IMG/VR virus record: IMGVR_UViG_2778261419_000001
Coordinates: 1-6,360 of that record
Reading direction: 5' to 3' (one strand)
Origin: a virus
Lineage: Duplodnaviria; Heunggongvirae; Uroviricota; Caudoviricetes
DNA: 6,360 nt
Under the pieces are notes generated by a model that had not been told where the DNA came from, searched no databases, and saw only the letters and a program-made list of their open reading frames with translations. The position numbers and the translations under genes were made by a program. Positions 1,894 to 6,360 of this stretch are shown here, piece after piece; positions within the stretch are counted from its first letter, which is position 1; each line of letters starts with the position of its first letter.

Positions 1894-1928
1894 CTCTCAA
1901 TTTGCACCCGCATCTGCGAGGTGGAGTT

Positions 1929-2144
1929 ATGAAATCCATGGATAAGTTAACAACGGGTGTCGCCTATGGCACCTCAGCAGGTAGTGCCGGTTACTGGTTT
2001 TTACAGCTGCTCGATAAAGTCACGCCCTCACAGTGGGCAGCAATAGGTGTGCTGGGTAGCCTGGTATTTGGCCTGCTGACGTACCTGACAAACCTTTATT
2101 TCAAGATTAAAGAAGATAAGCGCAAGGCTGCGAGAGGTGAATAA
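1929..2144 (+). CDS. essD: Pinholin, phage 21 S21-type, 71 aa, with dual start M1/M4 (antiholin/holin)
   Basis: Translation [71 protein letters not shown] matches the S21/EssD pinholin as I recall it. GAGG lies 7 nt upstream of ATG 1929; a second ATG sits at 1938. Stop overlaps the next start (TAATG). The ORF-track start at 1875 is probably not used. Confidence 0.9.
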
Positions 2145-2641
2145 TGCCTCCATCATTACGAAAAGCAGTTGCTGCTGCTATTGGTGGCGGAGCAATTGCT
2201 ATAGCATCAGTGTTAATCACTGGCCCAAGTGGTGACGATGGCCTGGAAGGTGTCAGCTACATACCATACAAAGATATCGTTGGCGTATGGACTGTATGTC
2301 ACGGACACACCGGAAAAGACATCATGCTCGGTAAAACGTATACCGAAGCAGAATGCAAAGCCCTCCTGAATAAAGACCTTGCCACGGTTGCCAGACAAAT
2401 TAACCCGTACATCAAAGTCGATATACCGGAAACAACGCGCGGCGCTCTTTACTCGTTCGTCTACAACGTGGGTGCTGGCAATTTCAGAACATCGACGCTT
2501 CTTCGCAAAATAAACCAGGGCGATATCAAAGGCGCATGTGACCAGCTACGTCGCTGGATATACGCTGGCGGTAAGCAATGGAAAGGCCTGATGACTCGTC
2601 GTGAGATTGAGCGTGAAGTCTGTTTGTGGGGGCAGCAATGA
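2144..2641 (+). CDS. rrrD: SAR endolysin (T4-lysozyme-fold muramidase, phage 21 R21 / RrrD-like), 165 aa
   Basis: N-terminal Gly/Ala-rich weakly hydrophobic SAR segment ([20 protein letters not shown]). Catalytic spacing E-x8-D-x5-T in [16 protein letters not shown]. Near-identical to RrrD as recalled. RBS GAGG upstream; translationally coupled to the pinholin. Confidence 0.9.
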
Positions 2642-3081
2642 GCAGAGTAACCGCGATTATCTCCGCTCTGATTATCTGCATCATCGTCTGCCTGTTATGG
2701 GCTGTTAATCATTACCGTGATAACGCCATCGCCTACAAAGAGCAGCGCGACAAAGCCGCATCCACTATCGCTGATATGCAGAAGCGTCAACGTGATGTAG
2801 CAGAACTCGACGCCAGATACACAAAGGAGCTTGCTGATGCTAACGCGATTATCGAAAGTCTTCGTGCTGATGTTTCTGCTGGGCGTAAGTGGCTGCGCGT
2901 CAAAGCTGTCTGTCCAGACATGCATAAAATCACCGCCGCCTCCGGCGTGGATGATGGCACCAGCCCCAGACTTACTGACACCGCTCAACGGGATTATTTC
3001 ACCCTTAGAAAGCGGATTGAAACCAGTGATAAAATGATCCGAGGCTTGCAGCAATACATTCGCACGCAGTGTGTAAGATGA
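2638..3081 (+). CDS. rz: Rz inner-membrane spanin (i-spanin), 147 aa
   Basis: ATG 2638 overlaps the endolysin stop (ATGA). N-terminal TM helix ([19 protein letters not shown]), then a charged coiled-coil-like periplasmic domain. Ends resemble lambda Rz. The ORF-track start at 2626 is GTG; ATG 2638 is preferred. Confidence 0.85.
2837..3037 (+). CDS. rz1: Rz1 outer-membrane lipoprotein spanin (o-spanin), embedded in the +1 frame of Rz, about 66 aa
   Basis: AAGGAG (2824-2829) lies 7 nt before ATG 2837. Signal peptide with lipobox LLGVSGC, then a Pro-rich region ([14 protein letters not shown]...TPLNGIISP) matching lambda Rz1. The ORF-track start at 2831 is TTG. Confidence 0.8.
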
Positions 3082-3461
3082 GCAATCTTTGCTAATTAGC
3101 CATGAAATAGATAAATATCAGGCCAACGATGATTAGTGCCAGGCATCCTAATTGGTCAGAATGGCTGGCATTTGATCGTCTTGCTCTTCTTGCAGTTGAT
3201 TGGACAGCCCTCTGTCCTCGACTTCCTCTTGGCATTCCTCTCATTTATTCTCTCTCAACATTGATATTGAACTGACAGATGATAATTATTTCATGAAAGT
3301 GGTATCTCGTTGATTTGATTACGCTACATAGTCGCCGGATTTTCGCATTTATCGGCATCGGGCGGTGCAAAATTGGCATAATCGAAACGTAGAGTTTTTG
3401 GCTGACAACAGCATTAGCGGTCACCCGGAGAGTGTTGTGAACATGTTAATTACATGACGCT

Positions 3462-3782
3462 TTAGATGCATCGACATTTGATGATGCTTGTCAGACCTGT
3501 CATTTTCTTTGCTTCATTTTCAACATTGAGGAAGTTGGTTGAGCATATTTTTTGATAATCTCCAGTTGTGAATCCTGTTTTATCGATCTTGCGTTTCAAG
3601 GGATTAATCGTTTTGCAAGATGCTCTATGGATTCTGGTAAAGCGTTCGTCAGATTTATTACCTTTACCTCTGGTTCGCTTCAATGCATTGACAACATATC
3701 CGTCTGGATTATCGCCAAGCCAATTACGATAGTCTGATTCACTCTCAGTCTGAAGGTCACTTCTGAATACCTTTATGGACAT
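3462..3782 (-). CDS. Hypothetical protein, about 106 aa, basic, with a C-x22-C-x24-C-x-C pattern; cargo gene at the bor-equivalent position upstream of cos
   Basis: Intact minus-strand ORF. The second in-frame ATG (3782-3780) has AGGAG 7 nt upstream, so it is preferred over the track start at 3800. About 40% GC. No family recognised. Confidence 0.5.
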   Translation of the reverse strand: MSIKVFRSDLQTESESDYRNWLGDNPDGYVVNALKRTRGKGNKSDERFTRIHRASCKTINPLKRKIDKTGFTTGDYQKICSTNFLNVENEAKKMTGLTSIIKCRCI

Positions 3783-3901
3783 GAAGATACTCCTGTGCAT
3801 TTATGGTACGAAGAAATAGCAAAAGTATTTTTACCGTAAATTGCGAATCTACAAAAGCAAAACAATGCGTAATATCAGAGTGAATATTCTGCCTTTAATG
3901 T

Positions 3902-4096
3902 GGGTCCTTCTGATGACCTGAGCTCTCACGGGGCGGAAGGCGCGCGGGTTTTCGCTATTTATGACAATTTTCCGGTTTAAGGCGTTTCCGTTCTTCTTCG
4001 CCGTAACCTAATGTTTTTATTTAAAACACCCCCTGAAAAGAAAGGAAACGACAGGTGCTGAAAACGGGCTTTTTGGCCTCTGTCGTTTCCTTTCTC
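3902..4096. other. cos DNA-packaging site: cosQ-like GGGTCCT (3902-3908), cosN (12-mer 3931-3942), cosB with R3 (3983-4000), I1 A/T-rich putative IHF region (about 4005-4031), R2 (4035-4054, inverted) and R1 (4080-4096)
   Basis: Collinear with the lambda left end as recalled: CGCGGGTTTTCGCTATTTATGA follows the 12-mer; R3 CGTTTCCGTTCTTCTTCG; R2/R1 form an inverted repeat GAAAGGAAACGACAG / CTGTCGTTTCCTTTC; sits immediately upstream of Nu1. Confidence 0.8.
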
Positions 4097-4119
4097 TGTT
4101 TTTGTCCGTGGAATGAACA

Positions 4120-4665
4120 ATGGAAGTCAACAAAAAGCAGCTGGCTGACATTTTCGGTGCGAGTATCCGTACCATTCAGAACTGGCAGGAACAGGGAATG
4201 CCCGTTCTGCGAGGCGGTGGCAAGGGTAATGAGGTGCTTTATGACTCTGCCGCCGTTATAAGATGGTATGCCGAAAGGGATGCTGAAATTGAGAACGAAA
4301 AGCTGCGCCGGGAAGTTGAAGAACTGCGGCAGGCCAGCGAGACAGATCTCCAGCCAGGGACTATTGAGTACGAACGCCATCGACTTACGCGTGCGCAGGC
4401 CGACGCACAGGAGCTGAAAAATGCCAGAGACTCCGCTGAAGTGGTGGAAACCGCATTCTGTACTTTCGTGCTGTCGCGGATCGCAGGTGAAATTGCCAGT
4501 ATTCTCGACGGGATCCCCCTGTCGGTGCAGCGGCGTTTTCCGGAACTGGAAAACCGACATGTTGATTTCCTGAAACGGGATATCATCAAAGCCATGAACA
4601 AAGCAGCCGCGCTGGATGAACTGATACCGGGGTTGCTGAGTGAATATATCGAACAGTCAGGTTAA
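4120..4665 (+). CDS. nu1: Terminase small subunit (lambda gpNu1 homolog), 181 aa
   Basis: Translation MEVNKKQLADIFGASIRTIQNWQEQGMPVLRGGGKGNEVLYDSAAV... is essentially lambda Nu1 (winged-HTH N-terminus that binds the cosB R elements). It overlaps the A start by 26 nt, as in lambda. Confidence 0.92.
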   Translation: MEVNKKQLADIFGASIRTIQNWQEQGMPVLRGGGKGNEVLYDSAAVIRWYAERDAEIENEKLRREVEELRQASETDLQPGTIEYERHRLTRAQADAQELKNARDSAEVVETAFCTFVLSRIAGEIASILDGIPLSVQRRFPELENRHVDFLKRDIIKAMNKAAALDELIPGLLSEYIEQSG

Positions 4666-6322
4666 CAGGCTGCGGCATTTTGTCCGCGCCGGGCTTCGCT
4701 CACTGTTCAGGCCGGAGCCACAGACCGCCGTTGAATGGGCGGATGCCAATTACTATCTCCCAAAAGAATCCGCATACCAGGAAGGGCGCTGGGAAACACT
4801 GCCCTTTCAGCGGGCCATCATGAATGCGATGGGCAGCGACTACATCCGTGAGGTGAATGTGGTGAAGTCTGCCCGTGTCGGTTATTCCAAAATGCTGCTG
4901 GGTGTTTATGCCTACTTTATAGAGCATAAGCAGCGCAACACCCTTATCTGGTTGCCGACGGATGGTGATGCCGAGAACTTTATGAAAACCCACGTTGAGC
5001 CGACCATCCGCGATATTCCGTCGCTGCTGGCGCTGGCTCCGTGGTATGGCAAAAAGCACCGGGATAACACGCTCACCATGAAGCGTTTTTCCAATGGTCG
5101 TGGCTTCTGGTGCCTGGGCGGTAAAGCGGCAAAAAACTACCGTGAAAAGTCGGTGGATGTGGCGGGTTATGATGAACTTGCTGCCTTTGATGAGGATATT
5201 GAACAGGAAGGCTCTCCGACGTTCCTTGGCGACAAACGTATTGAAGGCTCGGTCTGGCCAAAGTCCATCCGTGGCTCCACGCCAAAAGTGAGAGGCACCT
5301 GCCAGATTGAGCGTGCAGCCAGTGAATCCCCGCATTTTATGCGTTTTCATGTTGCCTGCCCGCACTGCGGGGAGGAGCAGTATCTTAAATTTGGCGACAA
5401 AGAGACGCCGTTTGGCCTCAAATGGACGCCGGATGACCCCTCCAGCGTGTTTTATCTCTGCGAGCATAATGCCTGCGTCATCCGCCAGCAGGAGCTGGAC
5501 TTTACTGATGCCCGTTATATCTGCGAAAAGACCGGGATCTGGACCCGTGATGGCATTCTCTGGTTTTCGTCATCCGGTGAAGAGATTGAGCCGCCGGACA
5601 GTGTGACCTTTCACATCTGGACGGCGTACAGCCCGTTCACCACCTGGGTGCAGATTGTCAAAGACTGGATGAAAACAAAAGGGGATACGGGAAAACGTAA
5701 AACCTTCGTGAACACCACGCTCGGTGAGACGTGGGAAGCGAAAATCGGCGAACGTCCGGATGCTGAAGTGATGGCAGAGCGGAAAGAGCATTATTCAGCG
5801 CCCGTTCCTGACCGTGTGGCTTACCTGACCGCCGGTATCGACTCCCAGCTGGACCGCTACGAAATGCGCGTATGGGGATGGGGGCCGGGTGAGGAAAGCT
5901 GGCTGATTGACCGGCAGATTATTATGGGCCGCCACGACGATGAACAGACGCTGCTGCGTGTGGATGAGGCCATCAATAAAACCTATACCCGCCGGAATGG
6001 TGCAGAAATGTCGATATCCCGTATCTGCTGGGATACTGGCGGGATTGACCCGACCATTGTGTATGAACGCTCGAAAAAACATGGGCTGTTCCGGGTGATC
6101 CCCATTAAAGGGGCATCCGTCTACGGAAAGCCGGTGGCCAGCATGCCACGTAAGCGAAACAAAAACGGGGTTTACCTTACCGAAATCGGTACGGATACCG
6201 CGAAAGAGCAGATTTATAACCGCTTCACACTGACGCCGGAAGGGGATGAACCGCTTCCCGGTGCCGTTCACTTCCCGAATAACCCGGATATCCAACAGCG
6301 TATGGAAATATCATTCACCTGA
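4640..6322 (+). CDS. A: Terminase large subunit (lambda gpA homolog), 560-aa ORF; lambda-like to about residue 551, then a divergent 9-codon tail and stop; probably a C-terminally truncated pseudogene
   Basis: GTG start at 4640. N-terminal 550 aa match lambda gpA (641 aa) as recalled. From about nt 6294 the sequence departs (PNNPDIQQRMEISFT-stop here, versus PNNPDIFDLTEAQQ... in lambda), with in-frame TGA at 6320-6322. Confidence 0.8.
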   Translation: MNISNSQVNRLRHFVRAGLRSLFRPEPQTAVEWADANYYLPKESAYQEGRWETLPFQRAIMNAMGSDYIREVNVVKSARVGYSKMLLGVYAYFIEHKQRNTLIWLPTDGDAENFMKTHVEPTIRDIPSLLALAPWYGKKHRDNTLTMKRFSNGRGFWCLGGKAAKNYREKSVDVAGYDELAAFDEDIEQEGSPTFLGDKRIEGSVWPKSIRGSTPKVRGTCQIERAASESPHFMRFHVACPHCGEEQYLKFGDKETPFGLKWTPDDPSSVFYLCEHNACVIRQQELDFTDARYICEKTGIWTRDGILWFSSSGEEIEPPDSVTFHIWTAYSPFTTWVQIVKDWMKTKGDTGKRKTFVNTTLGETWEAKIGERPDAEVMAERKEHYSAPVPDRVAYLTAGIDSQLDRYEMRVWGWGPGEESWLIDRQIIMGRHDDEQTLLRVDEAINKTYTRRNGAEMSISRICWDTGGIDPTIVYERSKKHGLFRVIPIKGASVYGKPVASMPRKRNKNGVYLTEIGTDTAKEQIYNRFTLTPEGDEPLPGAVHFPNNPDIQQRMEISFT

Positions 6323-6360
6323 AAGGGATGACAGCCGTTGGCGAAGGTGAGTTACTCATC

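Follow-up and report, generated by a model that had tools for sequence, protein, structure and literature searches.

A probable natural variant of the cohesive end at lambda-type cos sites of Escherichia prophages and phage-plasmids

The stretch of caudoviral DNA analyzed here (6,360 nucleotides; hereafter the window) very probably contains an ordinary lambda-type cos site in which cosN carries a natural allele, with AAGGCG replacing CGACCT at positions 7-12 of the cohesive end. Among the lambda-specificity cos sites of Escherichia, only the canonical cohesive end is commoner than the resulting 12-mer, GGGCGGAAGGCG, which accounts for about 2% of them.

The 12-mer was read directly from the letters at positions 3931-3942 (plus strand), and its register was set by alignment with the joined ends of lambda NC_001416. 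Its left half, GGGCGG (3931-3936), is the left half of a lambda-like cos site and is identical to that of the lambda 12-mer, GGGCGGCGACCT, whereas the right half reads AAGGCG in the window and CGACCT in lambda, with mismatches at positions 7, 8, 9, 10, and 12. A preliminary description of this DNA had counted five differences from the lambda cohesive end in 12 positions and had remarked on their clustering in the right half-site, and the alignment bears out both points. CG dinucleotides are present at both nick positions (3929-3930 and 3943-3944). The top-strand nick is predicted to follow 3930 and the bottom-strand nick 3942, which would leave GGGCGGAAGGCG as a 12-nt 5' overhang with the same G+C content as lambda's (10 of 12 in each). 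The 16-bp core consisting of the 12-mer and the two CGs has rotational symmetry at 8 of 16 bp, as against 10 of 16 in lambda; two symmetric pairs have been lost, while those closest to the nicks, namely the flanking CGs and G2/C11, are kept. An isolated match to a 12-mer means little. This one is significant because it lies in register between cosQ and cosB and, judged by that register, it is the equivalent of cosN and not a chance match. No contig or record starting or ending at GGGCGGAAGGCG was found among the retrieved IMG/VR and metagenome contigs and the two phage records that carry the site, YDC107_1 and PhiR46_1, both of which are in prophage or permuted form.

The elements on either side of the 12-mer are readily recognized. 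The cosQ heptamer GGGTCCT (3902-3908, plus strand), the packaging-termination element, was read directly and aligns with lambda cosQ; it is kept in nearly all of the variant and canonical loci that were compared. It is followed by TCTGATGACCTGAGCTCTCACG, with CACG immediately before the 12-mer, and alignment with lambda delimits the spacer between cosQ and cosN as 3909-3930 (plus strand), ending in the conserved CG that precedes the top-strand nick. Downstream, the sequence continues as CGCGGGTTTTCGC (3943-3955, plus strand; from the letters and the alignment), whose first letters are the CG beside the bottom-strand nick, or, in a longer reading, as CGCGGGTTTTCGCTATTTATGA. Over the region corresponding to lambda bp 13-260 there are only eight differences from lambda, among which a 1-bp deletion is counted; the alignment is free of gaps from cosN through R3, I1, and R2. 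The cores of R3, R2, and R1 are those of lambda. R3 (3980-3995, plus strand), which corresponds to lambda bp 50-65 (R3 coordinates from PMC9026076) and at which binding of gpNu1 is critical, is identical to its lambda counterpart. Between R3 and R2, the I1 region with its IHF site (plus strand, of approximate extent 3996-4035, placed by alignment only) has five substitutions relative to lambda, which it has in common with a Stx1 phage whose cosN is canonical. R2 (4036-4055, minus strand) is inverted relative to R3 and has the core GGAAACG, and R1 (4080-4098, plus strand) has the core CGTTTCC, both being evident from the letters and the alignment.

The preliminary description had called these flanks closely lambda-like. 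That holds for cosQ, for the right flank, and for the series R3-I1-R2-R1, but it does not extend to the spacer, which is strongly diverged and places the top-strand nick 29 nt, rather than lambda's 30 nt, from the start of cosQ. The window's spacer haplotype recurs in 9 or 10 other loci. Two natural spacings exist, one of 30 nt (ending in TTACG or CTACG) and one of 29 nt (ending in CCACG or TCACG), and both classes are found, in many loci, with several cosN alleles. In the loop between R2 and R1 (4064-4067; lambda bp ~135-138) the window has one substitution and a 1-bp deletion relative to lambda; the Stx1 phage, YDC107_1, and PhiR46_1 have the loop in the same state, which marks it as a common cosB haplotype and not as damage.

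How widespread the allele is was determined by searching 5,426 complete E. coli genomes for exact matches to a 37-mer composed of ACG, GGGCGGAAGGCG, and CGCGGGTTTTCGCTATTTATGA. The variant 37-mer was present in 155 of the genomes, at 166 places, 16 of them on plasmids. The canonical 37-mer was present in 4,101 genomes of the same set, at 7,413 places, so that the variant makes up about 2% of the lambda-type cos places in complete E. coli genomes. The variant site was also found in 77 IMG/VR contigs, in 31 metagenome contigs (mostly from human gut), in Escherichia sp. E1V33, in two GenBank phage records, YDC107_1 (CP025712) and PhiR46_1 (PV340565), and in 23 records of PLSDB plasmids, which are roughly 34-91 kb long and come from E. 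coli, Shigella sonnei, E. albertii, and E. fergusonii. Many of these 23 plasmids are near 46 kb in length; at a guess, they may belong to the N15-like phage-plasmid group of PhiR46_1 and YDC107_1. The sequences surrounding the allele are diverse: 113 variant sites had among them 30 distinct 34-nt left flanks and 40 distinct 180-nt right flanks, and the left flank that is commonest among canonical sites is also found with the variant 12-mer. The preliminary description had allowed that the 12-mer might turn out to be a common natural variant; this is what we find, with hundreds of independent assemblies carrying the site together with its flanks. Among the papers covered by a full-text search, no phage paper contained the exact string GGGCGGAAGGCG. 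A catalogue of natural cosN variants is reportedly to be found in Vahanian et al. 2017, Virology 509:140.

AAGGCG is not the only alternative to CGACCT. Targeted IUPAC scans of IMG/VR, in which the right flank was held as in the window, recovered the right halves CAGGCG (four contigs), CAGACG (three), TGACCT, AGACCT, and GAGCGT (two each), CTGACG, and CAACCT; the right half CGACCG was found as well (once). On a CG background, no letter other than A was seen at position 9 in these IMG/VR scans. A cosQ-anchored scan of species-representative genomes gave many chance matches in genomes of high G+C content and at least about 15 usable enterobacterial sites; the left half and the flanks were fixed by the design of the enterobacterial scan, which therefore informs on the variability of bp 7-12 only. 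Further right halves among the matches listed were CAGCGT, CGGCAT, CGGACT, CGTCCG, GTGGCT, CGCACG, CGGGGT, and CGCGCT, from Citrobacter, Kluyvera, Phytobacter, Enterobacter, Trabulsiella, Superficieibacter, and Kosakonia. Most of the right-half alleles are rich in G+C (three to five of six), which may reflect a need for stable annealing. The CAGGCG allele of IMG/VR, GGGCGGCAGGCG, has the same right flank as the window and is one substitution away from the window's 12-mer and four away from lambda's; it may be an evolutionary neighbor of the AAGGCG allele. The idea that there are two alleles without intermediates, and hence that AAGGCG was imported as a block from a distant lineage, was dropped when the IUPAC scans found CAGGCG and the other alleles.

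Variation of this kind accords with what has been published on cosN. Mutations in bp 7-12 have minimal phenotypes (Xu and Feiss 1991 and Hang et al. 2001, cited in PMC4669245), and symmetric changes in the left half are severe, with G2C cutting yield about 10-fold and its right-half partner C11G having no effect (Xu and Feiss 1991 in PMC4669245). Anchoring at cosB makes nicking of the bottom strand insensitive to sequence, and the asymmetry of the half-sites depends on it (Hang et al. 2001 in PMC4669245). Natural differences in bp 7-12 are common in lambda-like phages, N15 and phiD326 differing from lambda at positions 9 and 12 and Gifsy-1 at positions 8, 9, and 11 (PMC4669245), and the cohesive end of mEp213 and LLS is GGGCGGCGCGCT (PMC12315714). 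What stays constant among lambda-like phages is cosQ, the left half, and the CGs on either side of the nicks (Feiss et al. 2015, PMC4669245), and conservation of the left half serves as a criterion for cos (PMC4669245; also Vahanian 2017, to the extent that it is quoted in PMC9303873). The published data on tolerance concern mostly single or double changes, and five changes at once exceed the variants named in PMC4669245 and PMC12315714.

By homology to lambda, we envisage the site working as follows. Binding of gpNu1 to R3, R2, and R1 of cosB, together with bending of I1 by IHF, would anchor gpA. Its distance from R3 would direct this gpA to nick the bottom strand between bp 12 and 13, and the top strand would be nicked between ACG and GGG by another gpA, which would read the conserved left half. 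The staggered nicks would thus generate GGGCGGAAGGCG as the overhang, and cosQ would serve in termination. Because cosB would set the position of the right half-site, without its bases being read one by one, the sequence of this half would be free to drift and to be shuffled among phages by recombination. Complementarity would be kept whatever the right half, because both ends of the chromosome are cut from like cos sites.

A different, and in our judgment unlikely, explanation is that the allele is maintained by selection as a cohesive-end compatibility type, with lambda-like elements falling into CGACCT and AAGGCG groups. Ends cut at variant and canonical sites are not likely to anneal or cyclize with one another, given mismatches at 5 of 12 positions; two mismatches in the cohesive ends already lower yield about 4-fold (PMC4669245). 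E. coli genomes contain up to eight canonical cos sites each, the G+C content of the overhang has been kept at 10 of 12, and the variant is the second commonest allele and occurs in many backgrounds, species, and types of replicon. If this explanation were true, the minority end would shield its carrier, whether phage or phage-plasmid, from being drawn into packaging or recombination, and so into hybrid chromosomes or end-joining, with the many canonical lambda-like prophages resident in the same cell. Against it, one-step neighbors and many alleles of low frequency are what would be expected under near-neutral drift combined with hitch-hiking, and nothing out of the ordinary is required to account for an allele at about 2%.

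The natural-allele reading also accords with the terminase genes. Nu1 (4120-4665, plus strand), which encodes the small subunit of 181 amino acids (Pfam Phage_Nu1, E = 2.4e-101), lies intact directly downstream of cos, and its product is identical to lambda gpNu1 at 178 of 181 residues. Gene A, for the large subunit, is represented by codons 1-550 only (4640-6291, plus strand), and these are identical to lambda gpA at 548 of 550 residues (99.6%); the gene is cut after codon 550 of 641, whereas homologous loci have full-length A. To judge from the encoded proteins, the terminase of the window is, as far as gene A reaches, lambda's own. The preliminary description of Nu1 and A as lambda-like therefore stands for the residues that are present, but A breaks off at 6291.

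If the altered cosN were a nicking site of changed specificity that had co-evolved with its own terminase, it would need a cognate variant of gpA. We consider this very improbable. It is true that the changes are concentrated in a single half-site and remove two symmetric pairs. However, identical Nu1 proteins accompany both variant and canonical cosN alleles; indeed, the nohA DNA of the K-12 Qin cryptic prophage, whose cosN is canonical, matches the window's Nu1 letter for letter along most of the gene. Nor does any residue of gpA co-vary with the allele. The gpA of the window matches lambda at 548 of residues 1-550 (551-641 being missing), and in an alignment of 57 gpA sequences, 7 from variant loci, with the full-length proteins of the related ones, and 50 from non-variant loci (49 CGACCT and 1 CGACCG), no column separated the two classes, whose members interleave when ranked by identity to the window. 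Finally, lambda TerL shows no preference between lambda and N15 cosN (PMC4669245). A terminase change tracking the allele was accordingly rejected, on the grounds that Nu1 alleles are common to both classes and that there is no discriminating gpA column. The preliminary suggestion of a diverged nicking site holds only weakly, as a description of a natural allele; there is no sign of an altered terminase specificity.

The copy of the prophage in the window is nonetheless defective, for a reason unconnected with cosN. Similarity to its homologues ends at 6291/6292, a point beyond which gene A continues in all of them. The last 91 codons of A are absent, the frame stops at 6320-6322 after 550 native codons, and of the 294 positions in the Pfam GpA_nuclease profile only 2-237 are matched. 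Joined to the truncated gene is sequence of the side-tail-fiber (stf) region (6292-6360, plus strand; assigned by sequence identity): the last 69 bases of the window show 100% identity both with what lies upstream of Qin's stf remnant in K-12 and with tail-fiber genes elsewhere. At the joint is a 7-bp microhomology, CGGATAT, common to both partners, and none of the 5,426 complete E. coli genomes, nor any locus that was fetched, contained the junction. It would represent a private deletion of the same kind as Qin's, with a different left end, or, less likely, an assembly chimera. The prophage in the window is thus a deleted remnant whose defect is independent of its cosN allele, and its cos site is probably idle because the adjacent A is truncated; cutting would require a terminase of lambda specificity supplied in trans. 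The earlier characterization of the prophage as defective was correct, but the cause is the truncation of A and not the state of cosN.

Positions 1904-6291 of the window share 99.3% identity with a prophage found in ETEC H10407, O177:H21, TW14425, and others; positions 1-1903 fall outside the match to the H10407-type prophage, which places a mosaic joint just upstream of the holin gene. This left third of the window contains two minus-strand open reading frames, 205-768, which has no Pfam match, and 1113-1661, which has a weak match to DUF2441 (E = 6e-6). Upstream of cos lies a lysis cassette (1929-3081, plus strand; Pfam Phage_holin_2_1, Phage_lysozyme, and Phage_lysis), in which coordinates mapped from the annotation of ETEC H10407 place a P21-type holin at 1929-2144, an endolysin at 2144-2641, and Rz at 2638-3081. 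A minus-strand open reading frame (3462-3800) separates Rz from cos, at the location that bor and lambdap78 occupy in lambda; it belongs to no Pfam family and is annotated in H10407 and TW14425 as a hypothetical protein of 106 amino acids, WP_000025002. In both H10407 and TW14425 the Dsr1 sirtuin defense gene adjoins the integrase gene of the prophage.

That five changes sit in a damaged prophage raises the question of whether they are themselves damage, that is, an inactivating lesion in a cosN that has decayed within a dead element. The truncation of A at 6291 is in keeping with such decay, and the closest chromosomal relatives are damaged too, H10407 having IS3 and IS66 insertions, in a KilA-N gene and in gpU, and TW14425 having an internal inversion that splits tail genes. 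Yet the allele is present in a complete phage genome, that of PhiR46_1, and at independent loci that number in the hundreds and differ in their flanks, and decay would not keep a 12-mer identical base for base while its flanks vary. Moreover, nothing known to matter has been lost, as cosQ, GGGCGG, the flanking CGs, and R3 at the lambda spacing are all preserved, and Nu1, and A up to its break, are 98-99.6% identical to lambda without other damage. The chance that the 12-mer is a lesion, as the preliminary description had contemplated, is therefore very small.

The PhiR46_1 genome (PV340565, 1-46290) is that of a complete N15-like linear phage-plasmid, with telL/telR, ParAB, and a large primase, and with uninterrupted lambda-type head, tail, and terminase genes. 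Its record uses the words "complete genome" and names a propagation host, from which we infer that the phage is viable; a literature search found no paper describing PhiR46_1 or the PhiR phages. Both PhiR46_1 and YDC107_1 are N15-like linear phage-plasmids that have cosB, Nu1, and A of lambda specificity and the lambda head-tail module, and not the single-R cosB of N15.

The suggestion that the record contains an assembly or sequencing error, for which nothing speaks beyond the clustering of the changes, is effectively excluded, as 155 complete genomes, the work of many laboratories and platforms, contain the exact 37-mer, and the site with identical flanks recurs in hundreds of independent assemblies that include plasmid, viral, and metagenome collections.

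The natural-allele reading has some practical consequences. This large sample bears out what genetics from the Feiss laboratory had predicted for lambda-type cosN, namely that the right half can vary freely against a fixed background of cosQ, the left half, and the flanking CGs. Tools for finding cos sites and annotating prophage ends should therefore not demand the canonical 12-mer, and those who apply lambda-based packaging or cosmid methods to wild prophages should expect to meet ends that are not complementary to lambda's. Beyond annotation, the allele matters little. It lies in a half-site already known to be unconstrained.

It remains to set the site beside known cos systems. The window has in common with lambda the cosQ sequence GGGTCCT, the left half GGGCGG, a CG at both nicks, CGCGGGTTTTCGC, and the distance of R3-I1-R2-R1 from cosN. 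It differs from lambda at cohesive-end positions 7, 8, 9, 10, and 12, in the distance from cosQ to the nick (29 nt rather than 30), in the 1-bp deletion between R2 and R1, and in the truncation of A. As in N15, phiD326, Gifsy-1, and mEp213/LLS, the variation is confined to bp 7-12, with the left half, the flanking CGs, and cosQ being conserved; the changes are, however, more numerous in the window, where there are five, than in any of these phages, and the AAGGCG allele accompanies cosB and Nu1 of lambda specificity and not cosB of the N15 or Gifsy type. PhiR46_1 and YDC107_1 have a 12-mer and right flank identical to those of the window along with lambda-type Nu1 and A, but their cosQ-cosN spacer is of the lambda-like 30-nt type, their Nu1 allele is a different one, and they are complete genomes, whereas the window derives from an integrated, deleted prophage. 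Finally, the Qin cryptic prophage of K-12 resembles the window in having a deletion of the same kind, by which its terminase region has come to adjoin the same sequence ahead of the stf remnant, but the cosN of Qin is canonical (GGGCGGCGACCT), and its deletion begins where Nu1 ends and not at codon 550 of A.
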